The notes under the pieces: generated by a model | The model's database searches: none | Told to the model about the DNA's origin: nothing | The model's input: the letters and a program-made list of their open reading frames with translations, nothing else | Assembly: GCA_963921275.4 (NCBI GenBank) | Contig: OZ001293.3 | Span: 2,208,001-2,272,000, forward strand | From: an uncultured Hormoscilla sp. | Lineage (GTDB): Bacteria > Cyanobacteriota > Cyanobacteriia > Cyanobacteriales > Desertifilaceae | Direction of reading: 5' to 3' | Length of the DNA stretch: 64,000 nt | In this document: positions 1 through 59,637 of the stretch, piece by piece | Position numbering within the stretch: position 1 is the stretch's first letter | Layout of the letters: each line of letters begins with the position of its first letter | Position numbers and translations under genes: made by a program

Positions 1-436
1 GACAAGTTAGATGTTAAGCGCAAGCCACGGGGGGAGGGATGGCCCAAGAAGCGAATGCCCGGGGTAATTCCTGGGATAACATCTACAGTAATGTAGATGA
101 TGCTGGGTAGCCAGCGCTGACGTGGGTCGGTGATACTAGGAAGCTGCTGGAATGAGTAATCCTAAAAAGCCACGGAACTAATCCGAAACGCAAGTGGAGG
201 ATAAGGTATGGATAACTGGTAAAACTGACTTGAAAATGGTGATACTAACGGTTATCAGAACAACCACTCGCTAAACCAGGAAAGGGAAGAAAAGACAGGC
301 GGCAAGGGCTAACGGAAGTAATTCCTATTAAGTCTACCTATGAAAAGGACCTAGTACCCAGTAGCCGGATGCGGTGAAAATCGCAAGTCCGGTTCCTCAA
401 GGGAGGGTCGGGAAGCGATTCCCGGCTCGACCCCAT
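1..436 (+). mobile_element. ORF-less group II intron (type B, copy 1; 5' part lies before the window)
   Basis: Near-identical to 2276-2711. Domain V AGCCGGATGCGGTGAAAATCGCAAGTCCGGTT, domain VI hairpin and 3' end ...CTCGACCCCAT. Confidence 0.9.
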
Positions 437-1840: not shown

Positions 1841-2711
1841 GTGCGATTCGTTCTAGCCTAACGTGGTCAAACACGGAACGCTAGCCCGGTTTCATTAGCC
1901 GGGAACTCTGACCGCATGGGGGTTAAATTCCCCTCCCCCCAGGTACGGGGGTGACACCGGTCCTCGGTGCTACGAAGCGACATCATCGTGGTGCTAAGCG
2001 AGGACTCAAATGTAGGATAACTGGCAGCCTAAGCCGGTGACGCCGCTAGGAAAGATATCCAAGGTTAGAGCAGGCAAACATGTGTGCAAGCCTCGTTATA
2101 AGGAACCAGCGAAATAAGGCTATATGCGCTGGCCTAAAAAGGAAATGGTAGCTAGTATTAGTTTTAGACTCTGGCTAATATAGTACTCAAATAGCTCCCG
2201 GGGTATAGTGTGGACCTAAAGGTATCGCGAAATGTTGTTAGGGAACGAAGTAACCTCTCGTGTGCTGTCCATCAGGACAAGTTAGATGTTAAGCGCAAGC
2301 CACGGGGGGAGGGATGGCCCAAGAAGCGAATGCCCGGGGTAATTCCTGGGATAACATCTACAGTAATGTAGATGATGCTGGGTAGCCAGCGCTGACGTGG
2401 GTCGGTGATACTAGGAAGCTGCTGGAATGAGTAATCCTAAAAAGCCACGGAACTAATCCGAAACGCAAGTGGAGGATAAGGTATGGATAACTGGTAAAAC
2501 TGACTTGAAAATGGTGATACTAACGGTTATCAGAACAACCACTCGCTAAACCAGGAAAGGGAAGAAAAGACAGGCGGCAAGGGCTAACGGAAGTAATTTC
2601 TATTAAGTCTACCTATGAAAAGGGCCTAGTACCCAGTAGCCGGATGCGGTGAAAATCGCAAGTCCGGTTCCTCAAGGGAGGGTCGGGAAGCGATTCCCGG
2701 CTCGACCCCAT
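1841..2711 (+). mobile_element. ORF-less group IIB intron (type B, copy 2, complete, 871 bp)
   Basis: Starts GTGCG, ends ACCCCAT; domains V/VI at ~2637-2711. Loop AGACTC (2166-2171) is complementary to the 5' exon end GAGTCT. No RT ORF. Confidence 0.92.
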
Positions 2712-9300: not shown

Positions 9301-9911
9301 TCCAGGGATTTATTGTAATACCCGATCGCCTCTTCTAAACGTCCTTCCGTTTGCAAGACTAGGGCCATGTTATTGTGAACTTCTACGTAGTTGGGTTCGA
9401 TGGCCAGGGCCAGGTGGTATTGGGCGATCGCCTCGGCAATTTTACCCTGTTTTTTGAGGGTGTTCCCCAGACGATTATAGGCCCCTGCGTACTGCGGGTC
9501 GAGGGCGATCGCCCGCTGGTATTGGGCGATCGCCTCATCTAACCGCCCTAATGTTTTCAAGCAGTTGCCCCAGTTATTGTAAGCTTTAGGATAGTCTGGC
9601 TTCAGGGCGATCGCCTGTTTGTAGGCAGCGATCGCCTGTTCTATTTTTCCCTGTTCCCAGAAGCAAGCCCCCAAATTATTATAAGTCTCAGGCCAATCTT
9701 GCTTTATAGATATCACCTGTTGGAAATAGCCGAGCGATCGATCGTATTCCTTCGTCCGATAAGCAATAATTCCCAGCAGAAGCATAGCCTCTACCTGGTG
9801 AGGCTGCTGTTCTAGCATCGCCAAATAAACAGCCCTCGCTTTATCCAGACGTCCTGCTTGGTAGTGACTCAAAGCCTCTCTTAACCAATCGTTACCTGCT
9901 TGCTGTACCAT
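3388..9911 (-). pseudogene. Giant multi-module TPR + GT9-like glycosyltransferase gene (~2170 aa), split by one frameshift near 7414-7446
   Basis: Repeated TPR blocks and EQGxGDxIQFIRY / DFADTAA...[26 protein letters not shown]...DWRW modules. After the heptamer run, the other frame reads NIGIVWAAG...LELLG straight into the 3388-7320 ORF. Confidence 0.85.
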
Positions 9912-10307
9912 TTCACCTCCTAATCATAACAGACAAACCAACGTTAATTATAGCTTCAATTTCCAACTGTTTAATTTCTGATTCCCGGGATATTTTATTT
10001 TAACAGACCTGCATCTGGAAAAATTATTCCAGGAACAACAATTTCCTGGAATAATTTCTCTTCTAATTCTACATCTATGCTGCACCACCACAACAGGCCC
10101 AATGCCAAAAAGTGAGAAACTGCCAGTCCGATAGAGTTAACTCCTTTTCTTCTTATTCTCAACCCCGATCGCGTAGCGTGCGCGCAGCGCATTCGATGGA
10201 AATTACCTGAATTTTTGGTTGTTGCTCTAACAACTCACCCGCGGAGGCGCGATCCGGGAGGTTCTCCCGATACCGCCTTCGGCGCGCTCTTCGCTGTTAA
10301 TGCTGCT

Positions 10308-12062
10308 TTAACCTGGGCAAACACACTCGGCCAGTCTCCCAGTTTTGTTTGACGATCGGGGCCGCATCGTGGGATACCAAGGGCTATCCGATCGATCGAG
10401 CAACCAGCGCCAGTCAGGAGAAAAAGGTAACAGCACCCAGACAGGTTTTCCTAAAGCACCTGCTAGATGGGCAACTGCTGTATCTACAAAAATTACTAAG
10501 TCTAATTGTGAGATAACAGCAGCAGTATCAGCGAAGTCATGTAACAGCTCTCTTAAATCCTGTATAGGTGCCCCATCCAGAATATCTGTATGTTTTTTTT
10601 GCAAACTATAAAGAGAAATCCCTGGTATCTGCGACAGTTTCAGAAACAGGGAAACCGGACAAAACCGCGTCTTGCTAGCTCTATCACTAGGAGACCACAC
10701 AATGCCGACCTTTACGATGCCATCAGGATGTCGTGCCGTTCGTAGCAAGCCACTGTACTTGACGACGTCCTTCTCTTCAGCGTACAAATAGGGTATTCCA
10801 GCCGGAATAGTTTCTATAGTCGTATTCAGGATACGGGGGAGACTCATCAGGGGGACTTGCACGTCAAATGCTGGTAATGGTTCGCCTTTGACTACCACCT
10901 CCTGAACAAGGGAGACCGTAGTAAACAAGCGCCTGAGAGCCCGATATGTTTCCAGGATTACTTTACTAGCACCCCGCTGGGCTACTAAGGGCGCGTAACG
11001 GACGAACTGGATAGCGTCCCCGTGTCCCTGTTCTGTATGTAAAAGAATAGTTTTTCCTGCCAGTGGCGAACCATCCCAAAGGGGTTTTCCCAAGATTTGT
11101 TCCGGGGTCGGAGGCTGTGCTTTTAGGCGCCAGCGCCATTCATATTCTACAAATCCTTGCTGAAAGTCCTGCAATGATAACAAGCACGTTCCCAGACTTA
11201 CGTGGGTCTCTGCTTCATCTGGCTTTAAGGCAATAGCATGGCGGTAATAGCCCATCGCCTCTTGTAATTTCAGTTGTTCTTGCAGGGCAAGACCCAGGTT
11301 GTTGTAGACTGAGGCAAAGTCTGGTTTCAGGGCGATCGCCTTTTGGTGGCATGCGATCGCCTCTGCTAAGTTCCCCCATCTTTGATAGCAGTTACCCAAC
11401 TGATTATAAAATTCCGCCTGTTCTGGTTTAATGGCAATGGCTTTTTTATAATAAGCAATCGCCTCTTTTATGCGGTCATACTCTTCCATAATTCTAGCCA
11501 ATTTATAGTAAACTTCCGCACAGTTGACGTTAATGCTAATGATTTTTTCGTAGCAAACGATCGCCTGTTGGTAATGAGCGCTCGCCTCTTGATAACGCTT
11601 TTCCTCCTTCAGCATCGCCGCCGATTTTTCATGGGCCGCTCCACTCCGAATCAGCGGCACCACTTGCTGGTGCGTCTCGCGCATATCTAATCTTTTTCCC
11701 TGTTTTTCCAGGGCCATAACCAGGTTATCATAAGCATCAAAAAAATCAGGCTTCATTGCGATCGCCTGTTTGTAGGCAGCGATCGCCTGTTCTATTTTTC
11801 CCTGTTCCCAGAAGCAAGCCCCCAAATTATTATAAGTCTCAGGCCAATCTTGCTTTATAGATATCACCTGTTGGAAATAGCCGATCGCCCGATCGTATTC
11901 CCTCGTCCGATAAGCAATAATTCCCAGCAGAAGCATAGCCTCTACCTGGTGAGGCTGCTGTTCTAGCATCGCCAAATAAACAGCCCTCGCTTTATCCAGA
12001 CGTCCGGCTTGGTAGTGACCCAAAGCCTCTCTTAACCAATCATTATCCGCTTGCTGTACCAT
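10308..12062 (-). CDS. TPR + GT9-like glycosyltransferase; apparent frameshift in the last ~20 codons
   Basis: Same motifs. The N-terminal ~105 codons and upstream region are nearly identical to the gene starting at 9911. The C-terminus departs from consensus after SPWYPTMR. Confidence 0.85.
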   Translation of the reverse strand: [584 protein letters not shown]

Positions 12063-25898: not shown

Positions 25899-27586
25899 CG
25901 ACTATCTCCTTCACAATGCTTTTTCCAGAGAACGCTTGGTTCTCTAGGAGAGCGAGTCGGAATCTAGTTATCGCTCTTATCCGACTCGTCCTAACCCTGG
26001 AAGATGCTTGAGTTAGGACTTCCTAACCTAACTCGATCTTACACATACTCCGCCTTGATGGTAATCGACGGGCTGTTGTCGAACACCTTGATGAAACTGA
26101 TGTTGATGTCCATGTTGTAATACCAGGCGTTGCTGCCAGAATTATTGAGAGCATCGGCCCGTTCATTGGGATAGCCATTGACTATCGGTTGCAACTGTTG
26201 CCCCCTGATGCTAACGCTCTTCAACGGACCATTGCTTCCCTTATGTTCCCCCGGATCGTGCAATACTGCCACGAAGAAATGCTTCTCGAAGGGCGGCGTA
26301 TATCCGTCGTAGATGCGCTCCACTTTAATTTCCCGCGTCTTTTCGCTAGTGTAGCTGTGGGTAATCTTGGTCTCGCGATATTCGTCCTTGGCGTTGGGAT
26401 CGTCCACCTCTGCTTGTGGGGCAGAAGAACGGCTCACCCCATCGTCCAAATACATGTGGTATTCCCCTTCCTTCCCTGGATAAATATTCAGGGTAATGGG
26501 ATTGGGCTTACCTTCCGCATTCAATTGTCCCACATATTGTTTCAGTTCGATGATCGGAATGATTGCCCCTGCCCGGACGTGGATCGGAACAATAAAGTGA
26601 ATGTGATCGCCATTGGTATTGATGTTGGCATCAAAATCCCGTATCGTTGTGCCCCCTTCTACCGCAGCACCAAGAGGCATAACGTTGTCCACAAAGCAAT
26701 ACCAGTTGCTACCTTTGGGCACATAGACATCCCGCCGGCCATTGTTGTTGTCTTCAGATTGAGGGTGCAACACTGGAGCAATAAGCAGATCCTTGCGAAC
26801 GAAGAACTCGTTGTTCAGGAATTGGTCTTTATCATTGTAGAGGGATTCATCTTGGGGATCGTTGAGGAACAAGGAGCGGCAGATGGGCATCCCATTCAGG
26901 GTGTTCTCAAACAATGCGTCATAGAACAACTGCATCAGCCGGTAACGCAATTGAATGTAATGCCGGCAAATCGGCAACACCATCTCATACAAGTCTCGGG
27001 GTTCTGGGATATTGCCGCCGATATGTTCGTAAAACCAATCTACATACTGGAATGGTTCTTGGAACTCATTGCGCCCTTTGCGGACGTAGTGGTTGCGGAA
27101 CCAGGGTAAGAAAGCACCAGCCGCAGTCCAGCGGATCAGCAGTTCTGGACTTGCCCACTTGCCCCGATCGATTTCCCCCTCTTCAAAGCCGCCGATATCT
27201 TGCCCCGTGATTGCCAAGGCATGCATCCCTAGAGACAGGACTTGGGAGATATTCATCTGGAGGAAATCCCAGTCAGAAGAGTTATCCCCCGTCCACAAGC
27301 CAGCATATCGGTGAGAACCAACATAACTGCCCCGTCCGATGATAAAGTTGCGTTTGTTCTCCCGTCCGGGCAGTTTATTGAGTCCTTCGTAGGTGGCTTT
27401 GTGAAGATTGTAGGAGTACAAGTTCCAGACTTTGAGGGCTGGCTTCAACTCCAGTTCTCCTTGGAAATCGCTGCTCACATAGAGCTTGAAGGGGAAGCCC
27501 TTCATATCTCCACGGGAGTCGCGGATCGCCGGGGTGGTCATGTCCTGCCAGACAAATTCTAGCCCCTGCTCAAACAGGTATGTATA

Positions 27587-28598
27587 ACCTAAGTTGCGAC
27601 CTATTAAAAAAAATATGAATTACCCACTTAGACTTTACAGATATTTGGGATATTTCGTAGCTTTTGATACAAAATTATATTTTTTTTGTGCTAGACGGCG
27701 GGTTGGCTGTTTATAGGTTATAATGTACTAAAATAATAGTTAATTGCTGGGGGATGTAGATGATGGAAGATATGATTACAACAATTTTTGTTCTTTGTGA
27801 CGAGCTACTAAAAGCGTTAAATATAAAAGAAGATCCACAAGTAAAAATGAACAATGCCGAAGTGATGACAGTCGGATTAGTTGCTGCATATTTTTTCGGA
27901 GGACACCACGATCGCTCTTGTCAATTTATGGTCCAACACAAGTATATAAAAAATCTGTTAAGTAAAAGTAGGTTCAATCGTCGATTACACAATATTGACG
28001 AACCAATTTGGATGTTTTTCTTCCAAGTTATAGCTCAAACATTTAAAGAGCTCAATCCGGGTCAAGAATATATTCTTGATAGTTTCCCGGTGCCAGTATG
28101 TGATAATATTAGGATTGATAGATGCCAAATTTATAACAAGAAAGAATATCGAGGGTATATTGCCAGTAAAAAACGTTATTTTTATGGATTAAGAGTTCAT
28201 ATGTTGGTAAACAAAAATGTAAAGCCAATAGAATTTTATCTAGATCCTGGTAGTTATAATGATGTTAAAGTTTTACAATCTTTTGGCTTTGACTTACCAT
28301 CAAATTCAATAGTTTATGGAGATAAAGCTTATAATGATTATCAATTAGAGGATTTACTAAAAGAGTCGTCAAGTATAATGTTAAAACCTTTGCGAAAAAA
28401 GAACTCAAAAAGAAAAGAATCTTCTTGTTTTGAATATATACAAAAAGTAACAATAAAACAAGTTGAAACCTGTTTTATTTGAATCACAAATTTGTTTCCC
28501 AAGTCAATTCATGCTGTTACATCTAAGGGATTAGAGTTGAAAATAATTCTCTTTATCATAGCTTTTTGTATCCAATTTTTATAGGTCGCAACTTGAGT
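27587..28598 (+). mobile_element. IS982-family insertion sequence, 1012 bp
   Basis: TIRs ACCTAAGTTGCGACCTAT / ATAGGTCGCAACTTGAGT; 8-bp TSD TATGTATA at 27579-27586 and 28599-28606; AT-rich. Confidence 0.92.
27760..28584 (+). pseudogene. IS982 DDE transposase with premature TGA at 28480-28482
   Basis: LDSFPVPVC, YFYGLRVH, YGDKAY. The frame continues ITNLFPKSIHAVT to TAG at 28582-28584. Confidence 0.85.
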
Positions 28599-30140
28599 TA
28601 TGTATATTGCTTGCCCCACCATTCACGGACTTCTGGCCGGGCTAGATCGGCGTAATGCCCCGGAGTTCCCAGTTGGTTCCCGGCGGCATCTTCTCCATAG
28701 TAAACTTCGCCAATGTAAGGTTCGCCACTATTGAAACCTTCAACCCAGCCATTATTGGGACAGAATTCATGACCGCTACCGTAGATTTGGTAGTATTTGC
28801 TCTCGGGATTGTCCGCATCGTAACGCTTGTCGATCACAAAGTAGTCTTTTTCTAGTCCCTCCTTGTAGGTTGGGTAGTAACCTGGGTTGTCCTCATCTTG
28901 TTTGCTGATCACCGGGGTGATGTTGGTGCTGCACTTGACACCTTGCGATCGCAACCAACCGAACATTTCCTTTGGGCTGTCGAAGGTTTTCTCGTAGGGG
29001 CTGTTCTTATTGTAGATGTAATCCGGCTTGATGGTGAAAGTCCGGTAGTTATCTTGGATATCGACGTCCACCGCGAGGCCATCAAGGGGAATGTCATAAC
29101 TCCGGTATTTTTCTACAATCCACTTGAGGTCAGCCGCACATTCGTACCCATAGCAACCTTGGTGACATCCTAGGGCGTAACGCGGTTTCAACTCGGCGCG
29201 GCCAACAATGGCGGTAAAGCTATCCAAGATGTTCTTCGGGTCTTCTCCCAAGAACACATAGTAGTCAAGATCCCCAAAGCGGGTGCCGAACATATAGCGA
29301 CTGGAGTTGCTATAGCCGATATCGATGAAGACTTGAGAGGGGTTGTCCAGGAGAACCGCATTGACGTTTTTGCTACCGGGAATGCCATTGAACTCGTAAA
29401 AGAACGGCTCCGAGTGGTAAAGAGGCTCCCGGTTATCTAACGGTCCGCGATCGTAGACCTGTCGATAGCGCATATTATCGAAGTTGAAATAATTTAACTG
29501 GTCGCTATTTTTTTGGAGTTTTGTTCCCCCTTGTTCCCCAAACCCGATATATTTGCCGTTGGCTGGTTTCTTGACCGCTTGGATGACGGCATAATCCTCT
29601 TTGCCATGCGGGGTATAGTAAATTGCCGTGTCTGCGGTTTGCCAGACGGTAATTTTTGCATATTCCGCATTGGATGGGGAGTTGTTGAATACTTTGATTC
29701 CGAAGGGAGCCAAGGTGACAACCACTTGCATCACGATGGAGTTAAATTCCGACTTCGTTGTCAAGACGATCTGGCCGTTGCCTTCTTGGCAATCTAGATC
29801 GAAGATATATTGTTGCCTGATTTCCTCGTCCGCCTCATCGAAGTCGCAGTGTTCCAGCAAGTGCGTGAAACTGCTGTATTCCGCCTCCGTTGACTTGGTT
29901 GGGTTAAAGCGCACCCGTAATGTATCGTTCTGAAGCACCTCTATCAACATCAGGCAATCGCTGCCATCGACCTTCTTAAATTTAAGGCTCAAAGTCTTTT
30001 GCTCTTTATTGAAGGAATGACCGACAGATGACCCCAGTTTGTCCCATTCTTGGTAGCGGCCAAAATATTCCTCGACCTTGAGAAATTTGTAAACGCGATG
30101 ACTTGGAAAAATTTCGTTGGACATTACTTGACTCTTCTCC

Positions 30141-30860
30141 TTAGTTAGAATTTTTTTTTGGGTGATATTCGATCGCCATCCATATGCAATCCGTCTCTGC
30201 ATAATACTGATGCCACGGATAGGTATATTGCTGGTTTTCGTGAACCTGACAAAATGGCACGATCTGGGTGTATCCCTCAGTCATCAAGAGGTCTTCATAG
30301 AGACTCTCAAAACTTTTCACCTTGAACTTCTGCATCCGTCCCTGTCCAAAGACTTGGGTGTGAATCTCCAGAAAGTCATGTTGGTTATGGATTGCACAAT
30401 CGGTACGGGAAGGGGCATACCAGAGGTTCACTTTGACACAGAACTTTTCTTGGTGACTGGGCGCACTTGATTGCCTGGCCATAAAATACGGATCCACTTC
30501 TATGATTCCCGCCTCGTCTTGGGGAGACTTCCATAGCGGGATGTCTGTGGGAAAGTTCGTGTCTGGGAAGTTACCCAATAGATCCCACCCTGGCTCAAAG
30601 ACAATCTTGCCGATATTGTTGGTCTCTACCACTGAGAGCAAAAGTAAGGACTTTGCTTTTTCGATGGTAGTATCTTTGAGTATAGTCGATGAAAAAGCCG
30701 GAATTATGCTGACGTTTGCTTCCTTCAGGTAAGCATCAGTTTCTTCGGGGTTGACTGCGATTGTACGGTTCTGAATGGGATAGTTTTCCACATTTTCAAC
30801 GCATTTCGCGTCTATGTACGCACCGGAAAAGTTAATGACTTTGACTTGGTTAGTTGTCAT
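30141..30860 (-). CDS. Cupin-type protein resembling the cupin region of aldos-2-ulose dehydratase
   Basis: NLWYAP..TDCAIHNQHDFLEIHTQ and YPWHQY His/Glu metal motifs; ends 16 nt before the glucan-lyase-like start. Confidence 0.6.
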   Translation of the reverse strand: MTTNQVKVINFSGAYIDAKCVENVENYPIQNRTIAVNPEETDAYLKEANVSIIPAFSSTILKDTTIEKAKSLLLLSVVETNNIGKIVFEPGWDLLGNFPDTNFPTDIPLWKSPQDEAGIIEVDPYFMARQSSAPSHQEKFCVKVNLWYAPSRTDCAIHNQHDFLEIHTQVFGQGRMQKFKVKSFESLYEDLLMTEGYTQIVPFCQVHENQQYTYPWHQYYAETDCIWMAIEYHPKKNSN

Positions 30861-31224: not shown

Positions 31225-32093
31225 ATGGGGTCGAGCCGGGAATCGCTTCCCGACCCTCCCTTGAGGAACCGGACTTGCGATTTTCACCGCATCCGGCTAC
31301 TGGGTACTAGGCCCTTTTCATAGGTAGACTTAATAGGAATTACTTCCGTTAGCCCTTGCCGCCTGTCTTTTCTTCCCTTTCCTGGTTTAGCGAGTGGTTG
31401 TTCTGATAACCGTTAGTATCACCATTTTCAAGTCAGTTTTACCAGTTATCCATACCTTATCCTCCACTTGCGTTTCGGATTAGTTCCGTGGCTTTTTAGG
31501 ATTACTCATTCCAGCAGCTTCCTAGTATCACCGACCCACGTCAGCGCTGGCTACCCAGCATCATCTACATTACTGTAGATGTTATCCCAGGAATTACCCC
31601 GGGCATTCGCTTCTTGGGCCATCCCTCCCCCCGTGGCTTGCGCTTAACATCTAACTTGTCCTGATGGACAGCACACGAGAGGTTACTTCGTTCCCTAACA
31701 ACATTTCGCGATACCTTTAGGTCCACACTATACCCCGGGAGCTATTTGAGTACTATATTAGCCAGAGTCTAAAACTAATACTAGCTACCATTTCCTTTTT
31801 AGGCCAGCGCATATAGCCTTATTTCGCTGGTTCCTTATAACGAGGCTTGCACATGTTTGCCTGCTCTAACCTTGGATATCTTTCCTAGCGGCGTCACCGG
31901 CTTAGGCTGCCAGTTATCCTACATTTGAGTCCTCGCTTAGCACCACGATGATGTCGCTTCGTAGCACCGAGGACCGGTGTCACCCCCGTACCTGGGGGGA
32001 GGGGAATTTAACCCCCATGCGGTCAGAGTTCCCGGCTAATGAAACCGGGCTAGCGTTCCGTGTTTGACCACGTTAGGCTAGAACGAATCGCAC
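31225..32093 (-). mobile_element. ORF-less group IIB intron (type B, copy 3, 869 bp)
   Basis: Reverse complement of 1841-2711. 5' exon ends GAGTGT; 3' exon begins CCA. Confidence 0.92.
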
Positions 32094-32247: not shown

Positions 32248-32320
32248 GTCGGGGTCGAGCTGGGAATCGCTTCCCAACCGGACCTTTCGGAACCATGGGT
32301 GCGACTTTCACCGCACCAGG
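32248..32320 (-). mobile_element. Isolated domain V-VI remnant of a related group II intron
   Basis: Reverse strand reads TGCGGTGAAAGTCGCA...GGTTCCGAAAGG...GGGAAGCGATTCCCAGCTCGACCCCGAC. Confidence 0.75.
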
Positions 32321-32879
32321 TCACTCAATTGACTTTGAAACACAAAGTCCCACAGAACTTGCTCTCACATTATTTGCTTGCGGCTTCCTCACACAGTCAG
32401 ATTACGAGATACTGGTAAAAGCAATTGCAATCTCAGACCGCGTGATAGAACAACAGGAGAAAGTAGCAGTTGCACAAAATTTTGCTGACCAAGCTTTTGA
32501 GGTGGTGCAGCGTCTTGTTCGCTTCCATTCCCAAGTATAGTAAGTTGGTCCCACGACACTGGGGAAGACCCAGATAAGGTTCTATCCTCTCGGGCCGCGC
32601 CACCAGGCAGCCCCCTATGCTAAATTAACACTAAGCCATGTTCATGTCGGACCGGGTCCGAAACGATAACTATGTCTCTGGGAAATTTGCGCGACCTCTA
32701 TCAACAAGTTATTCTAGAACATTACAAGAAGCCTCGGCATCGGGGTAAAACAGAACCGGTGCATCGGTCCCAGCGGGGACATAACCCCAGTTGCGGGGAT
32801 ACCATCGAGCTGACTCTGCAACTGAATGATGCACGCGATCGCATCTGTGATGTAAAATTCTCTGGGGAAGGCTGCGCGA
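32321..32879 (+). repeat. Near-exact 559-bp direct duplication of 33766-34324 (3' end of hypothetical gene, intergenic region, 5' part of sufU-like gene)
   Basis: Constant 1445-bp offset; accounts for ORFs 32295-32540 and 32672-32920. Confidence 0.95.
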
Positions 32880-33383: not shown

Positions 33384-33985
33384 CTACAGCATTATCAAAA
33401 TTGTCAGATCCTATGAGCGACGAAATTGCCGATCGCTATAGACAGCAAGGTTATCGAGTTTTAGTGAAGCCGCGCGTGGCTCCCTTGACTGAATTTATTT
33501 CCAGAGCGGATCTAGATTACATTATCCACGCGGAAAAATCAGCGGTGATTGTAGCCTTAAAACCTTCTGATATCCGGCCTGTAGTTAAAGATGAATCTGA
33601 TAGCGAGCAAATACCAACATTGTATGATTATCCGGTGAGAGATTTGACAGATATTTCCATATATCAGTCGAGAGCAGGGTATCTAATAGCAAAAGGAGAT
33701 TTTGATGCAGCTGTTTGTGGTGCTGTGTTTATAGCTAAAGTAGTGATGCGGATGATAGCAGAACATCACTCAATTGACTTTGAAACGCAAAGTCCCACAG
33801 AACTTGCTCTCACATTATTTGCTTGCGGCTTCCTCACACAGTCAGATTACGAGATACTGGTAAAAGCAATTGCAATCTCAGACCGCGTGATAGAACAACA
33901 GGAGAAAGTAGCAGTTGCACAAAATTTTGCTGACCAAGCTTTTGAGGTGGTGCAGCGTCTTGTTCGCTTCCATTCCCAAGTATAG
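33380..33985 (+). CDS. Hypothetical protein (restriction-endonuclease-like N-terminus, helical C-terminus), start overlapping the RusA-like stop
   Basis: IADRYRQQGYRVLVKP...D motif; ATGA overlap at 33380-33383. Confidence 0.55.
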   Translation: MTTALSKLSDPMSDEIADRYRQQGYRVLVKPRVAPLTEFISRADLDYIIHAEKSAVIVALKPSDIRPVVKDESDSEQIPTLYDYPVRDLTDISIYQSRAGYLIAKGDFDAAVCGAVFIAKVVMRMIAEHHSIDFETQSPTELALTLFACGFLTQSDYEILVKAIAISDRVIEQQEKVAVAQNFADQAFEVVQRLVRFHSQV

Positions 33986-34116
33986 TAAGTTGGTCCCACG
34001 ACACTGGGGAAGACCCAGATAAGGTTCTATCCTCTCGGGCCGCGCCACCAGGCAGCCCCCTATGCTAAATTAACACTAAGCCATGTTCATGTCGGACCGG
34101 GTCCGAAACGATAACT

Positions 34117-34596
34117 ATGTCTCTGGGAAATTTGCGCGACCTCTATCAACAAGTTATTCTAGAACATTACAAGAAGCCTCGGCATCGGGGTAAAACAGAA
34201 CCGGTGCATCGGTCCCAGCGGGGACATAACCCCAGTTGCGGGGATACCATCGAGCTGACTCTGCAACTGAATGATGCACGCGATCGCATCTGTGATGTAA
34301 AATTCTCTGGGGAAGGGTGCGCGATCGCGATGGCGTCGGCGGACTTGATGGCGGAGGCCTGCATCGGCAAAACAGTTGGAGAAGCTCTGGAAATGGTAGA
34401 AAGGTTCCAAGGGATGATGAAAGGAGAGGTAGAGTTTCCCAAAGAACTGCGGAAGTTGAACGTCATGCAAGGCGTTTCCCAGTTCCCAGTCAGAATCAAA
34501 TGTGCTAATCTGACTTGGCATACCCTGAAAGCGGCCCTGAAAAATCCCTTAGGCAGTCAGCCAGAAGCAGGGTTTGTCAGCAACGAACAGGATTAA
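34117..34596 (+). CDS. sufU: SUF-system NifU/SufU-family Fe-S assembly protein
   Basis: LYQQVILEHYKKP, NPSCGD, GEGCAI, FPVRIKCA. Confidence 0.9.
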   Translation: MSLGNLRDLYQQVILEHYKKPRHRGKTEPVHRSQRGHNPSCGDTIELTLQLNDARDRICDVKFSGEGCAIAMASADLMAEACIGKTVGEALEMVERFQGMMKGEVEFPKELRKLNVMQGVSQFPVRIKCANLTWHTLKAALKNPLGSQPEAGFVSNEQD

Positions 34597-42726: not shown

Positions 42727-42919
42727 GGCTATACTCCGCGCGGTAATCGCACAAAAGACACAGCTCGAACCCGTTCCAGGCGGGAGCCTCTTAACGAGGG
42801 ATCCGGCTACGAGAACCGCCTGCTTCGATGTCTCCGGAGAGCGCTAGTCGCACTACTCCGGAGACATCGAGGGCTATATTACATGTCCGCAGAAGCTCAG
42901 ATGGCCTATGGGGGCATAT

Positions 42920-45900
42920 TGATCCCCCCCAGCAGGAGTATCAGGCCTTAAGGGCTCTCTATCAAAGCACCAATGGGGCTTCTTGGACGAACAATACAGG
43001 CTGGCGGGACTGGAATTTCAACAGCCAAACTCCCCCCGAAGCTTCTGTTGTTAATGGTTGGTTTGGGGTGACGGTAGATAGCGACAGGGTGACTGAGCTC
43101 CAGCTGAACGTCAACTTCCTGACTGGCAGCATCCCGACGGAGTTAGGGAATCTTTCCAATTTGGAGGATCTCTGGCTGGACTTCAACCAACTGACTGGCA
43201 GCATCCCGACGGAGTTAGGGAATCTTTCCAATTTGGAGGATCTCTGGCTGTTCTCCAACCAACTGACTGGCAGCATCCCGACGGAGTTAGGGAATCTTTC
43301 CAATTTGGAGGATCTCTGGCTGTTCTCCAACCAACTGACTGGCAGCATCCCGACGGAGTTAGGGAATCTTTCCAATTTGGAGGATCTCTGGCTGTTCTCC
43401 AACCAACTGACTGGCAGCATCCCGACGGAGTTAGGGAATCTTTCCAATTTGGCATCTCTCTACCTGGACTCCAACCAACTGACTGGCAGCATCCCCCAAG
43501 AGGTTCTAGATTTGAGTGCCTTCAAGCGGTTGGAAAACCCCCCTTATGTTTTAACCGAGATTTCCGACGTCCAACTCTTGCTAAGTAATAACCTCAACAT
43601 AGACATTAGCGCAAATTTCGGCGACATCAATAACAACATCGACAATTACACAGCTACCGGTTTACCAGGGGGCGTAACGATCAACAGTCGGGGAGTTATC
43701 AGCGGTACTCCTACTACCGCAGACATCTTTACCGTAACGGTAACTGCCACCGACGCTGCTGGGAACAGTTACTCAGAAGCCTTTACTATTAGCGTCAATG
43801 AGATCCTCCAGCAGGAGTATCAGGCTTTAAGGGCTCTCTATCAAAGCACTAATGGGGCTTTTTGGAGGAACAATACAGGCTGGCGGGACTGGAATTTCAA
43901 CAGCCAAACTCCCCCCAAAGCTTCTATTCTTAATGGTTGGTATGGAGTGACGGTAGTTAACAAGAGGGTGACGGAACTCTGGCTGCACTCCAACTTCCTG
44001 ATTCGCAGCATCCCGACGGAGTTAGGGAATCTTTCCAATTTGGAGGAACTCCGGCTGTCCAACAACTTCCTGACTGGCAGCATCCCGACGGAGTTAGGGA
44101 ATCTTTCCAATTTGGAGGATCTCTGGCTGGAGGAAAACCAACTGACTGGCAGCATCCCGACGGAGTTAGGGAATCTTTCCAATTTGGAGTCGCTCCGGCT
44201 GGACGACAACTTCCTGACTGGCAGCATCCCGACGGAGTTAGGGAATCTTTCCAATTTGGAGGATCTCTGGCTGAACTCCAACGAACTGACTGGCAGCATC
44301 CCGACGGAGTTAGGGAATCTTTCCAATTTGGAGTCGCTCCGGCTGGACGACAACTTCCTGACTGGCAGCATCCCGACGGAGTTAGGGAATCTTTCCAATT
44401 TGGAGTCGCTCCGGCTGTACTCCAACCAACTGACTGGCAGCATCCCGACGGAGTTAGGGAATCTTTCCAATTTGGCATCTCTCTACCTAAACTCCAACCA
44501 ACTGACTGGCAGCATCCCGACGGAGTTAGGGAATCTTTCCAATTTGGAGTTTCTCAATCTGAAATACAACCAACTGACTGGCAGCATCCCGACGGAGTTA
44601 GGGAATCTTTCCAATTTGGAGTTTCTCTGGCTGCGCTCCAACCAACTGACTGGCAGCATCCCGACGGAGTTAGGGAATCTTTCCAATTTGGCATCTCTCT
44701 GGCTGACCTCCAACCAACTGACTGGCAGCATCCCGACGGAGTTAGGGAATCTTTCCAATTTGGCATCTCTCGTGCTGACCTCCAACCAACTGACTGGCAG
44801 CATTCCGACGGAGTTAGGGAATCTTTCCAATTTGAGTCGTCTCCGGCTGAACAACAACCAACTGACTGGCAGCATCCCGACGGAGTTAGTCTTTCCCATT
44901 TGTGGACGTTCTACCTGAACAACAACCAACTGACTGGCAGCATCCCGACGGAGTTAGGGAATCTTTCCAATTTGGAGTTTCTCAATCTGAAATACAACCA
45001 ACTGACTGGCAGCATCCCGACGGAGTTAGGGAATCTTTCCAATTTGGAGTTTCTCTGGCTGCGCTCCAACGAACTGACTGGCAGCATCCCGACGGAGTTA
45101 GGGAATCTTTCCAATTTGGAGTTTCTCTGGCTGGAGGAAAACCAACTGACTGGCAGCATCCCGACGGAGGGAATCTTTCCAATTTGATTTGGCTCTGGCT
45201 GGAAGAGAACCAACTGACTGGCAGCATCCCGACGGAGTTAGGGAATCTTTCCCATTTGTCGCAGCTCTACCTGAACAACAACCTCCTGACTGGCACCATC
45301 CCCCAAGGGGTCTTAGATTTGTGGGCTGAAAAGCGGTTGGAAAACCCCCCTTATGTTTTAACCGAGATTCCCGACGTCGAACTCTTGCTAGGTAATAACC
45401 TCGACATAGACATTAGCGACAACTTCGGCGACATCAATAACAACATCAACAATTACACAGCTACCGGTTTACCAGGGGGCGTAACCACCAACAGTCAGGG
45501 AGTTATCAGCGGTACTCCTACTACCGCAGACACCTTTACCGTGACGGTAACCGCCATGGACGCAGTGAGCAATCAAGGGACAGATATCTTTGACATTGTT
45601 ATAGAGAACTCCCCTCCTACCGAGCGTAGCGAGCAACTCTACGAAAACGGGGGGAACGACTATCTCATCGGCAGATATGAAAACGACAGTCTCATCGGCG
45701 GATATGGAAAGGATACCCTCATCGGCGGATATGAAAACGATACTATCTACGGAGGAGGTGGGAACGACTCTCTCATCGGCGGACGTGGAAAAGATACCAT
45801 CTACGGAGAAGATGGGAACGACTCTCTCATCGGCGGACGTGGAAAAGATTACCTCTACGGAGGAGATGGGAACGACTCTCTCATCGGCGGACGTGGAAAA

Positions 45901-46203
45901 GATTACCTCTACGGAGGTGATGAGAACGACACCCTCATCGGTGGACGTGGAGACGATACCCTCGAAGGAGGGGAGGACGCCGATATTTTTGTTCTGAAGC
46001 AGGGCCATGGCCGGGATACCATTATAGACTTTGAAGATGGCACGGACTTGATTGGGCTAGCAGGAAGTTTGAGTTTCGAAGATTTGGCGATCGTCAGGAT
46101 AGGCCGAAATACCTCAATTAACTTTGAAGGGGAAACCCTTGCCACTTTGCAGGGGATTGATTCAACCCTGATTACTAGCGATGATTTCACTGTGGTTACT
46201 TGA
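42920..46203 (+). pseudogene. Secreted LRR protein (plant-type 24-aa LRRs, two Ig-like He_PIG domains, C-terminal RTX Ca-binding repeats) with two 4-bp deletions (~44889, ~45169)
   Basis: 72-bp repeats encoding LTGSIPTELGNLSNL; ATGLPGGVTINS.GVISGTP; GG.G.D.L.G nonamers and D.I.DF..G.D.I. Confidence 0.88.
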
Positions 46204-46311
46204 AGTTTATCACGATGCCTGCGCGATGCCTTCCGGGTTTTCGCCGTGCGTCCGGAAGGCATTGTAGGTTGCCTGCGTTGCCTGCGTTGCATCCCGATTT
46301 TTCCGGGGCTG

Positions 46312-46425
46312 AACCAGTTAGATATTAAGCGTAAGCCGTTAAGGGAGGGATGTCCTAAGAAGCCGAATGCCTGGGGTAATGCCCGGGATGTGTACCAGTT
46401 ATTGTTCTGGTGCCCGCTGACGTAG
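46312..46425 (+). mobile_element. Internal fragment of a related group II intron
   Basis: AGTTAGAT.TTAAGCG.AAGCC...GGGAGGGATG...AAGAAGC.GAATGCC.GGGGTAAT...GCTGACGT resembles 2278-2400. Confidence 0.7.
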
Positions 46426-48713: not shown

Positions 48714-48883
48714 GACGAGGCCAGGACTAAAGTCCTTACTACGAACGGACGAGGCCAGGACTAAAGTCCTTACTACGAACGGACGAGGCCAGGACTAAAG
48801 TCCTTACTACGAACGGACGAGGCCAGGACTAAAGTCCTTACTACGAACGGACGAGGCCAGGACTAAAGTCCTTACTACGAACG
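48714..48883. repeat. Five identical tandem 34-bp units, each holding a GTAG-type REP (reverse strand), preceded by an inverted copy at 48678-48702
   Basis: Unit GACGAGGCCAGGACTAAAGTCCTTACTACGAACG at 48714, 48748, 48782, 48816, 48850. Confidence 0.95.
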
Positions 48884-48899
48884 GATAGGAACGGAGGCA

Positions 48900-55964: not shown

Positions 55965-57003
55965 TATTTTATACTCCTGATGATGTATATTATTACTTGG
56001 GTAGTATAGGATATTCTTGATAAATTGTAAAGTTTTGTGATGTGAGCTGACAACATCTACAGCTGGCTGCGGTTCGCCCGTGGTTATACGGCCGTCAGCT
56101 TAAATCACCAATTAATATCATGTCGGGTTGAATGCACCTGATTAAGCGGCCTTGATTTTTGGCCACCAATGATATAAGGTCAACCCCTCAATTAACTCTT
56201 GCTGTTGGAGTAATTGGCGACATCGCTCAACCGGTGTCTTCCACCTCATCAATGCTATTAAACGCTTTGTTGGCTAAAGGTTCATCGATTAATGGCCATA
56301 ACCGCTCAGCTGGTTGCAACTCTGGTGAATAGGGGGGCAGGGGGAACAGGTGAATCCCTTCAGGCACCTGGAGCTTTTCCGTCATATGCTAGCTAGCCTG
56401 GTGGAGAGGGAGAATTACCCGTTTATCTTTGCCAACTTGGAAATGATAGGCAAAGTCTTCGAGCACCGCAGCGAATAGCTGGCTATTCACCTCGGGAAGA
56501 AGCCACCAGTATCTCCTGTTTGGGGTTGGACAAAACCGTACAACCACAACCATTCCCGTTTCCAGTTGACCTTGGCAATCGGCACTGAGAGTGCTTCTAC
56601 CCAGACAGGGCGAGTCACTGGCTGCAATCCGATGGGATGTTCATCTTCTGCCCAAATCTCGACGGTAGCTTCGGAATTGACTGTTGAATCCGTTCCACCT
56701 CTACGAGCAGTTTTTTTTGCCATTCAGACTGAACTTCCTCTACCGCCTCAATATGCTCAGGACGCGGCACTCTTAAACGAAACCCCATCGGCTTAAGATC
56801 TACCCACCCTTGTTGCCAGCTAATACAGATACCAAAGGCATCCCTCAAGTAGTCACAGACAGAGGCGCCCATTCCAAAGACCTCCATCGGGGGCGAGCCC
56901 ACAGCAATTGGGCCTGTTGTATATCATCGAGTTTCGAGTGCGATTCGTTCTAGCCTAACGTGGTCAAACACGGAACGCTGGTCTAGGAAACTAGAAACTC
57001 TGG

Positions 57004-57872
57004 ATGGGGTCGAGCCGGGAATCGCTTCCCGACCCTCCCTTGAGGAACCGGACTTGCGATTTTCACCGCATCCGGCTACTGGGTACTAGGCCCTTTTCAT
57101 AGGTAGACTTAATAGGAATTACTTCCGTTAGCCCTTGCCGCCTATCTTTTCTTCCCTTTCCTGGTTTAGCGAGTGGTTGTTCTGATAACCGTTAGTATCA
57201 CCATTTTCAAGTCAGTTTTACCAGTTATCCATACCTTATCCTCCACTTGCGTTTCGGATTAGTTCCGTGGCTTTTTAGGATTACTCATTCCAGCAGCTTC
57301 CTAGTATCACCGACCCACGTCAGCGCTGGCTACCCAGCATCATCTACATTACTGTAGATGTTATCCCAGGAATTACCCCGGGCATTCGCTTCTTGGGCCA
57401 TCCCTCCCCCCGTGGCTTGCGCTTAACATCTAACTTGTCCTGATGGACAGCACACGAGAGGTTACTTCGTTCCCTAACAACATTTCGCGATACCTTTAGG
57501 TCCACACTATACCCCGGGAGCTATTTGAGTACTATATTAGCCAGAGTCTAAAACTAATACTAGCTACCATTTCCTTTTTAGGCCAGCGCATATAGCCTTA
57601 TTTCGCTGGTTCCTTATAACGAGGCTTGCACATGTTTGCCTGCTCTAACCTTGGATATCTTTCCTAGCGGCGTCACCGGCTTAGGCTGCCAGTTATCCTA
57701 CATTTGAGTCCTCGCTTAGCACCACGATGATGTCGCTTCGTAGCACCGAGGACCGGTGTCACCCCCGTACCTGGGGGGAGGGGAATTTAACCCCCATGCG
57801 GTCAGAGTTCCCGGCTAATGAAACCGGGCTAGCGTTCCGTGTTTGACCACGTTAGGCTAGAACGAATCGCAC
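57004..57872 (-). mobile_element. ORF-less group IIB intron (type B, copy 4, 869 bp), inserted antisense into intron A
   Basis: Near-identical to 31225-32093; 3' exon again begins CCA. Confidence 0.92.
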
Positions 57873-57896
57873 AGTACTCATGAGGGTTAGATTCCC

Positions 57897-58653
57897 GTGC
57901 GATGAGTTCCAGCCTAACGTAGTCATATACGGAACGCTGGCCTAGGAAACTAGGAACTCTGGTAATCATGGGGGTTTAATTCCCCCTCCCCAGGTACAGG
58001 GGTAACACCGGTTGGAGGCGCTGCGAAATAACATCGTCGTGGTGCTAAGCGAGGACTCAAATGTAGGATAGCTGGCAGCCCAAGCCAGTGAGGACGCTAG
58101 GAAAGATGTCCATGGCTAGAACAAGCGAACCTATGTAAACCTCGTTAAACCCAACCAGCGAAATAAGGCTTAATGCGCTGGAACAAAAGTTAATGCAGTT
58201 AGTGTTAATTAGGGAATTGGCTAACATTGTACCCAAATAACTGCCGGGGAAAAGTAGGGGCCTAAAGGCATCGTGAAATGATACCAGGGAACGAAGTAAC
58301 CCTTCGTGTGCTGTCCTAAAGGACCAGTCAGATGTGAAGCGCAAGCCGCGAGTGGGAAAGATGGCCTAAGAAGCAAATGCCCGGAGTAATGCCTGGGATA
58401 TGCAGACGTAGGTCGGTGATAGTTGGAAGTCTTGGGTAAAAGTAGCCCTAAATATGCCTACAGCTCGGGGGAAACCTGTCAGAGATGGATAAGCTCAAGG
58501 GGCCAAATCTCATGAGACGAGGGACAACGGGAGTAATCCCGAAGTTACCTACCAGTGACAAGGACCAACTACCCAGTAGCCGTGTGCGGTGAAAGTCGCA
58601 TGCACGGTTCCGAACGGGAGGGTTGTCCCGCGAGGGACAGCTCGACCCCTAAT
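57897..58653 (+). mobile_element. ORF-less group IIB intron (type C, 757 bp), inserted in sense into intron A
   Basis: GTGCG start; domain V AGCCGTGTGCGGTGAAAGTCGCATGCACGGTT; end CTCGACCCCTAAT. Loop GGGAAT (58212-58217) is complementary to the 5' exon ATTCCC. Confidence 0.9.
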
Positions 58654-59637
58654 TCTCCCCAGGCACGGGGGTAACACCGGTTGGAGGTGCTGCGGAGTAA
58701 CATCGCCGTGGTGCTAAGCGAGAACTTAAATGTAGGATAGCTGATAGCCTAAATCGGCGACGCCGCGCTTGTTAGATGTCCAAGGTCAGAATAAGCGAAT
58801 TCATGAAATGATACTAGGGAACGAAGTAACCTCTCATGAGCTGTCCTCATTTGGACAAGTTAGATGTAAAACGGAAGCCATGAGGGGAGAGATGGCCCAA
58901 GAAGCAAAAGCCTGGGGTAATTCCTATGGATACGCTGACGTGGGTCGGTGATAGATAGAGTCTTTGGGTGAAAGTAACCTTAATGTTTTAGATCAGGAGA
59001 AATCCTAGATAATGAATGTTGGACTAAAGACCTGACCGGGTAAAACTTGGAGAACCTAGTAAATTAGGTAAATGTTAGTAAAGAGCGGTTAAAATGGGTT
59101 GGTACTGTTATCCCCCGCGAACCTTCCGGAGTTAGGCATATATGTAGTCTGAGACTAACCATAAGGGGTGAAATTGCATGAAGAAAGGGACAAAGGGAGT
59201 AATTCTGAGTAATTATACTTAGGACAAAGGCTATCTACCCAGTAGCCGTGTGCGGTGAAAGTCGCTCTTCAGGTTCCGAAAGGGAGGGTTGGGAGGTGAC
59301 TCCTAGCTCGACCCCAACTCTGCTTTCCCCAGCATTGTGACGCCGTAAATCTCCCAACGCAGCTACAAGAAATGCGGTTGTAACTACGAACCAGCTCGTA
59401 AATCCAATCCCGACTGTAGCCCGTCACCGCTGCTACTTCCTCTCGGGGTCGGCCTTGGGCTAATAACCAGATGATTTGATAATGTGAGCGCTCAATCGGA
59501 TGAGAAGTCTGACGGTAGCGTTGTTCCAATTCCTCAACTGTGAGATGGGAGAAAATACTGATGCGTTTGGGCATTACCAGTGTACCAGGAGGGGACTATT
59601 CTATATTAGGTGCATTCAACCCGACATGATATAACAA

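Follow-up and report, generated by a model that had tools for sequence, protein, structure and literature searches.

An intron that inserts into introns of its own family, at a site that it also carries, raises the question of how it avoids invading its own copies. This question is posed by a locus in an uncultured Hormoscilla sp., in a 64-kb stretch of DNA (hereafter the window, with positions counted from its first letter), where a complete group II intron, C, lies inside a degenerate relative, A, close to copies of a third type, B. We put at about 0.7 the probability that C, an ORF-less intron that looks to be of the cyanobacterial IIB2 type, arrived by RNA-guided retrohoming into domain I of its paralogue A, with guides that read a hairpin of the family, and so gave rise to a twintron.

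Introns of the window

In searches of the 64-kb window with the Rfam model Intron_gpII, whose gathering score is 40, five domain V/VI elements of group II introns reached that threshold (360-436, 2635-2711 and 58575-58653 on the + strand; 31225-31301 and 57004-57080 on the − strand), and a degenerate sixth element at 59241-59318 (+) fell short of it with 21.7 bits. Self-comparison and an nhmmer profile of the intron family grouped the introns into four of type B, one of type C and one degenerate A. The reference B-type copy, B2 (1841..2711, +), has EBS1 AGACTC at 2166-2171, the 5′ exon GAGTCT and the 3′ exon CCA. B1 (1..436, +), recognized by Rfam, self-comparison and the nhmmer profile, is a 3′ part cut by the window edge; B3 (31225..32093, −) carries an empty C-type motif on the minus strand at 32014; and the full-length B4 (57004..57872, −) lies antisense in A. 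The B introns start with GTGCGATTC, resembling the Trichodesmium IIB2 host intron as given in PMC4649490. Reverse transcriptase domains had no Pfam match among the 41 window ORFs scanned (39 of the 52 with 130 aa or more, together with two short ones that flank A), so all intron copies in the window appear to be ORF-less.

Two smaller pieces of the family are also present. A domain V/VI fragment of another intron (32250-32325, −), ending ...CGACCCCGAC, lies ~155 nt upstream of B3, and its 5′ side is truncated by an element of 559 nt, two copies of which (32321-32879 and 33766-34324) share 99.6% identity. In addition, nhmmer aligns an isolated fragment of ~120 nt (46307-46425, +) with domains I-III of the family profile (E 7.7e-19).

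The window has several other repeated or interrupted features. A glycoside hydrolase family 31 gene (26039-30202, −) is apparently present as two ORFs, 28598-30202 and 26039-27541, and a DDE transposase ORF (27760-28482, +) appears to split it. Long tandem arrays with a 72-nt period lie within a leucine-rich-repeat/He_PIG ORF (42828-46203, +), which is followed by an RTX (HemolysinCabind)/He_PIG ORF, and a perfect tandem repeat with a 34-nt period occupies 48714-48885. Three successive large TPR-repeat ORFs of 1310, 858 and 584 aa (3388-12062, −) have internal repeats in common, and the first of them includes a glycosyltransferase family 9 piece.

C is a complete intron without a reading frame

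Intron C (57897..58653, +; 757 nt) was delimited by Rfam, nhmmer and alignment to B. Its sequence opens with GTGCG (57897) and closes with ...CTCGACCCCTAAT (58653), with the domain V/VI terminus ...CCCCTAAT, and thus has the GUGYG start and the AY end after the bulged A of domain VI, this A being read off the sequence. Domains V-VI of C (58575-58653) score 43.9 bits against the Rfam Intron_gpII gathering score of 40, which places it among group II introns, and the nhmmer family profile spans it from end to end. Domain IV is short and holds no reverse transcriptase/maturase ORF, so that C is not an autonomous mobile intron; because it has no reverse transcriptase ORF, its mobility would require a protein supplied in trans.

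In the RNAalifold consensus of four family sequences, the base of domain I bears two additional stem-loops on its 5′ side (columns 13-44 and 45-63). Each has compensatory pairs, and both stem-loops sit within the basal stem 7-12:405-410. Two extra 5′ stem-loops in domain I are the distinguishing mark of cyanobacterial IIB2 introns in the account given in PMC8643678, and on the consensus fold C looks like an ORF-less group II intron of this type. The Rfam D1-D4 subclass models assigned no subclass, the best of them (group-II-D1D4-2) reaching 22 bits against a gathering score of 36. C is ~71% identical to A over aligned columns. Self-comparison and nhmmer found one copy of C in the window, and a blastn search with C against a plasmid collection returned eight records, each covering at most 7% of the query with domain V or short pieces of the core.

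The nest and its host

C occupies A after position 90 and on the same + strand, so that one complete intron stands within another, as in a twintron. A is interrupted twice within 24 nt, by B4 in antisense (between positions 66 and 67) and by C in sense (90/91), and each insert is complete from GTGCG through the end of domain VI. When both are excised, A becomes collinear with B and C, and removal of C rejoins a 13-nt segment. The degenerate intron is thereby divided into three pieces on the + strand, namely positions 1-66 (56938..57003), whose initial 42 nt match the 5′ end of B with 100% identity; positions 67-90 (57873..57896), which bear the IBS2 and IBS1 of C; and the remainder (58654..59318), from which ~145 nt are missing. 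In the alignment the missing stretch is the one that holds EBS2, EBS1 and the EBS3 region in B and C, and domain V of A has lost its pairing (the 21.7-bit element above). The whole A/B4/C nest lies antisense within a frameshifted remnant of an IS630-like transposase (56615..59574, −), whose HTH_23 and HTH_33 pieces occupy 59269-59574 and 56615-56902.

With its EBS elements deleted, its domain V broken and a B intron in antisense 24 nt upstream of C, host A is, as read from its sequence, dead. Since A has no EBS element and a degenerate domain V, it is unlikely to splice, and the nest is better described as a relic in junk DNA than as a working unit for sequential splicing. The initial annotation had pictured C as using other introns as safe havens. 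That description does not suit this host, which is a dead relic antisense in a transposase pseudogene, neutral DNA and not a splicing host; because A is non-functional, any benefit from splicing of a host intron cannot apply at the nest.

A nest of this kind might also form by recombination or partial duplication between related introns, with no insertion at all. Sequence exchange has occurred locally, as a perfect 42-nt inverted repeat is shared by the 5′ end of A (56938-56979, +) and that of B4 (57831-57872, −). Beyond this repeat, A has only ~67% identity to B in the aligned columns, a pattern suggestive of a local gene conversion that involved both 5′ ends. Against a recombinational origin of the nest, the ends of both C and B4 are exact intron ends with which the breakpoints coincide, and their removal restores a collinear A. 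The ~71% identity of C to A, and the match of both insertion sites to the EBS of the respective invader, speak against it as well, and we regard this origin as highly improbable.

The guides covary with their targets across intron/site pairs

The initial annotation had proposed that B and C carry different EBS1 sequences, AGACTC and GGGAAT, at homologous positions and that each matches its own 5′ exon. This proves correct: both occupy A1 columns 327-332, each occurs once in its intron (2166-2171 in B2), and they face the 5′ exons GAGTCT (1835-1840) and ATTCCC (57891-57896), respectively. GGGAAT in C (58212..58217, +) lies in the terminal loop of the ID hairpin and is complementary at 6/6 positions to ATTCCC, the IBS1 at −6 to −1. 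A second guide, EBS2, had been overlooked. Its sequence AACCC (58148..58152, +; A1 columns 260-264) lies in an unpaired stretch of subdomain ID and is complementary at 5/5 positions to GGGTT (57884..57888, +), the IBS2 at −13 to −9, which lies in the 5′ strand and loop of a hairpin in domain I of A. The match at the C site therefore comprises EBS2 5/5, EBS1 6/6 and, for the candidate EBS3 discussed below, 1/1. This geometry equals the TeI3c register described in PMC3706431, in which EBS1 reads −1 to −6 and EBS2 reads −9 to −13.

Covariation was counted over six intron/site pairs, namely C, B2, B3 and B4, and, from Hormoscilla sp. GUM202, the inner intron at locus L001 and the intron at locus L002; three of these rows share the B intron and differ in their exons. 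At the same columns, the L001 inner intron has the guide pairs AGATG/CATCT and GTCTTC/AAAGAC, and L002 has AGTAA/TTACT and TCTAGA/TTTGGA. Of the 66 EBS-IBS cells, 86.4% are paired, against 47.9 ± 5.0% when partners are shuffled (0 of 500 shuffles attain 86.4%) and 27-50% when they are slid by 1-3 columns, and changes on both sides are found in 11 of 11 EBS-IBS column pairs. Non-cognate combinations of EBS and site, scored with the internal motifs of C and B2 excluded, give 0-3 Watson-Crick pairs per EBS element.

The family consensus fold of four sequences places EBS1 within a 9-nt terminal loop (columns 325-333) above a stem in which pair 318:340 is compensatory (GC in two sequences, AU in two), and leaves the EBS2 columns unpaired. 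GGGAAT is thus located in the EBS1 loop as initially assumed, with the qualification that the EBS1 hairpin of C folds ambiguously on its own, an alternative weak hairpin (−6.2 kcal/mol, z 0.18) pairing the AAU of GGGAAT. Because single-sequence folds of the EBS1 and target hairpins are uninformative by themselves (z −0.94 to +0.18), we prefer the comparative fold.

The target is a conserved hairpin of the intron family

The target of C, GGGTTnnATTCCC, is a conserved domain I hairpin of the intron family. With C removed, A reads TTAGATTCCC followed by T; the counterpart segments are TTAAATTCCCC in B (at 1923, and on the minus strand at 32011 and 57790) and TTTAATTCCCC in C (at 57975). The earlier observation that ATTCCC falls in a conserved domain I segment, with T following it only in A, is borne out, the shared form being TT(A/T)(A/G)ATTCCC in A, B and C. 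GGGTT-nn-ATTCCC belongs to a small hairpin located early in domain I, where it covers the 5′ strand and the loop and extends into the 3′ strand; in B and C this hairpin has the form GGGGG(loop)CCCCC. The reconstituted hairpin of A folds as GAGGG(UUAGAUU)CCCUC, and the copy in C itself (GGGTT TA ATTCCC then C; 57972..57985, +), which is empty and matches at 11/12 positions with its only mismatch at +1, folds as GGGGG(UUUAAUU)CCCCC.

Full 11/11 matches to IBS2 plus IBS1 occur five times on the two strands of the window, all within introns of the family: in B2 at 1920, in B3 at 32014 (−), in B4 at 57793 (−), in C at 57972 and in A at 57884, the last being occupied. Looser matches have little meaning, since 10/12 or better is frequent by chance (mean 4.82 per shuffled window over 200 shuffles); the real window has 12, of which seven are 10/12 matches outside introns. 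One such chance near-match, GGCTT AA ATTCCC then C, lies at 4368 (10/12).

Because the target is a structural hairpin conserved by the whole family, the specificity of C is directed at its own relatives by construction. The sequence evidence thus leaves well supported the proposal that C is aimed at group II introns, and more exactly at its own intron family: its site is fully matched and looks cognate, the site is a hairpin that the family conserves, and 5/5 of the 11/11 sites fall in family introns. In the mechanism that we propose, C would reverse-splice into DNA and then be copied by a reverse transcriptase supplied in trans. Its guides would read a 12-nt site, GGGTT-nn-ATTCCC followed by T, with EBS2 on −13 to −9, EBS1 on −6 to −1 and probably the EBS3 A on +1. 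The C lineage may use the domain I hairpin habitually, although a single copy of C is visible.

B introns at cognate and near-cognate sites

The B introns provide a comparison for how closely a site may match its invader. B4 differs from B3 at one and from B2 at four of ~870 positions, and with full copies separated by only 1-4 differences, B is by this measure recently mobile. The intron parts of B1 and B2 are 99.5% identical and their flanks 87.8% identical with 36 gap positions, for which reason the two look like independent recent homing events. They occupy equivalent sites, in antisense, in a tandem pair of paralogous transposase genes of the PD-(D/E)XK nuclease family (PDDEXK_2 and DUF4351; regions 1-755 and 2276-2994, ORF 351-1466, −). 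The target of B4 is CATGAGTACT followed by CCA, akin to the other B sites. B3 and B4 stand at near-cognate sites, GAGTGT/CCA and GAGTACT/CCA, compared with GAGTCT/CCA, and the IBS1 at the B4 site makes two Watson-Crick pairs and one wobble in register, or six pairs with one A bulged.

These imperfect sites bear on a different account of C, in which its presence in A would be a one-off ectopic retrotransposition by a lineage that normally resides elsewhere, the match being fortuitous or the product of later EBS compensation under selection for splicing. In favour of such an event, a single copy of C is visible in the window, the relic A was also entered by a B intron that is clearly ectopic and imperfectly matched, and the surrounding region is a mobile-element graveyard. 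The ectopic B sites (B3 and B4) carry mismatches, however, unlike the site of C, where 12/12 positions match, with a chance of ~6e-8 per site. Adaptation after insertion is itself improbable, given that the host is dead and runs antisense to the surrounding gene. A one-off event consequently seems unlikely to us, and guided homing into the family hairpin remains the preferred reading.

The +1 base and the empty sites

It had been proposed that C is a ribozyme whose putative EBS3 covaries with the first base of the 3′ exon, and that this +1 base might prevent self-insertion. The candidate EBS3 of C, A58256 (+), is in A1 column 371, 3′ of EBS1 in an internal-loop region of ID, as is predicted for IIB introns in PMC3706431 and PMC8643678. 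Pairing of an EBS3 in such a loop with the first 3′ exon base sets subgroup IIB apart from IIA. The covariation holds in part: G2210 in B faces the 3′ exon C (2712) and A58256 in C faces the 3′ exon T (58654), but only two intron types are involved, and in the L001 inner intron the A of column 371 faces a mismatched C. L002 was omitted from this comparison, as its 3′ end is ambiguous (..CCCCAG then CCCAT..). The EBS3/IBS3 pairing adds substantially to the retrohoming of TeI3c in the experiments described in PMC3706431. On the sequences compared, A58256 is an uncertain candidate for the base that pairs with +1.

The candidate IBS3, T58654 (+1, + strand), pairs with A57883 (−14) in the reconstituted A hairpin, and a single compensatory base-pair change is what separates the A-type site from those of types B and C. 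Since +1 T and −14 A are partners in this hairpin, one base-pair flip alters both ends of the recognized word. The +1 base is C at all four empty 11/11 sites and T, once C is excised, at the sole occupied one. It is plausible, with EBS3 taken as a candidate, that the +1 base protects C from self-insertion.

We give even odds to a reading in which the sites are empty for reasons other than the +1 base (EBS3 A facing IBS3 T or C), namely that C moves little or has lost its mobility, or that selection acts against insertions which disrupt a working domain I. The assignment of EBS3 relies on two intron types, with a C opposite the A of the L001 inner intron, and an invariant G at 58254 (A1 column 369), two bases upstream of 58256, would suit every observed +1 base, pairing with C or T at all sites. 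If this G were EBS3, the sites in B and C would be better targets than that in A. EBS2a-IBS2a pairing, sought under the rule of PMC8643678, was discarded as evidence; the candidate EBS2a base is T throughout the family, and an A stands at −14 in just two of eight sites (that of C and one other), which makes it uninformative. Against this reading stand the distribution of the +1 base over empty and occupied sites (4/4 and 1/1) and the single flip by which the site is altered at its two ends. The empty sites are accounted for as well by a weakly active C, or by selection against the disruption of working introns, as by the +1 base, and the emptiness of the four 11/12 sites (B2, B3, B4 and C) is just as compatible with a C that seldom moves or has ceased to move.

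Nested relatives in Hormoscilla sp. GUM202

A scan of genome contigs with a degenerate 5′-end pattern returned at least three loci, all from one Hormoscilla sp. GUM202 MAG among the matches listed, and the EBS1 of C was carried by none of the GUM202 loci among those matches. One arrangement is itself a nest, in which a 924-nt inner intron lies antisense at the 5′ edge of the EBS1 loop of a B-like outer intron, the IBS2/IBS1 of the inner intron being the reverse complement of the outer EBS1 hairpin. This composite is present at no fewer than two loci, L001:1501-3023 and L003:1-1523, whose 5′ flanks are unrelated; the 1,523 bases that could be aligned, from the outer 5′ end up to where the locus stops, are 100% identical. 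It would appear either that the composite moves as a unit or that the same site was struck twice. An antisense fragment from the 3′ part of a further intron (L001:1249-1474, −) stops 26 nt short of the outer intron's 5′ end and may be a third nesting layer. Taken together, the B copies, the GUM202 composites and the nest indicate that members of this intron family as a rule insert into other introns and transposase genes, on either strand. A literature search for Hormoscilla together with group II introns returned no paper.

Relation to known introns within introns

A close parallel is in Thermosynechococcus elongatus, where ORF-less F3 introns (TeI3a-e) lie within F1 introns (TeI4a-e) and, as in the mechanism proposed for C, ORF-less cyanobacterial IIB introns are mobilized in trans, as described in the text of Mohr et al. 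2010 (PMC2882425). In that account the site falls between the first and second ATG of the host ORF, within domain IV, and is absent from the invader, whereas C occupies a domain I hairpin of the ribozyme, a site also present in the invader; the subclass is IIB1 there and IIB2-like here. Five independent insertions and mobility assays are reported for T. elongatus (PMC2882425), compared with one insertion, known from sequence, at our locus.

The Tery_4732 twintron of Trichodesmium erythraeum (Pfreundt and Hess 2015, PMC4649490) is similar in architecture, with an inner intron in domain I of an IIB2 host, as here, and a host 5′ end, GUGCGAUUC, as in B. In Tery_4732, as presented in PMC4649490, both introns have reverse transcriptase ORFs, a conserved gene is interrupted and splicing is sequential, whereas in the nest both introns are ORF-less, the host is dead and the whole is antisense in a transposase pseudogene. 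A lycophyte mitochondrial intron (2020, PMC7049729) is inserted into its own copy and also into domain I of another intron; that case is organellar, with self-insertion in domain IV, and its published description as seen in PMC7049729 gives no conserved family-wide target motif. Nested arrays of Methanosarcina acetivorans group II introns, cited in PMC2882425, are similar in that related introns repeatedly insert into each other.

Introns that home into introns are thus already known from Thermosynechococcus, Trichodesmium, Methanosarcina and plant mitochondria, and what is new here is the site. The targets of the archaeal introns that Dai and Zimmerly treated in 2003 for Methanosarcina acetivorans reportedly lie in intron ORFs rather than in the ribozyme core. 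The novelty of the present locus is a target that is a conserved hairpin of the ribozyme fold, borne by the invader as well, and not an ORF or a variable domain.

Of the hyperparasitic intron suggested by the initial annotation, the part that stands is C at a matched site in a family intron; its host is a dead relic, and intron-in-intron homing had already been described (PMC2882425). A stronger claim, that C-type introns are obligate introns of introns, which recognize 12-13 nt of their own IIB2 domain I hairpin and gain immunity through one base pair, seems doubtful to us. If it were true, the immunity of C and its B paralogues would lie in a G:C pair (B, C) as opposed to A:U (A) at the outermost positions, −14/+1, and one compensatory flip would create or abolish a target while the ribozyme fold is kept.

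The nest comprises three layers of intron-on-intron insertion, in sense and antisense, within 2.4 kb. Nested ORF-less introns are easily overlooked, and the locus should help in the annotation of such genomes. It is an incremental example and not a new principle, in a setting where homing into other mobile introns is one proposed route by which group II introns proliferate in non-essential DNA.
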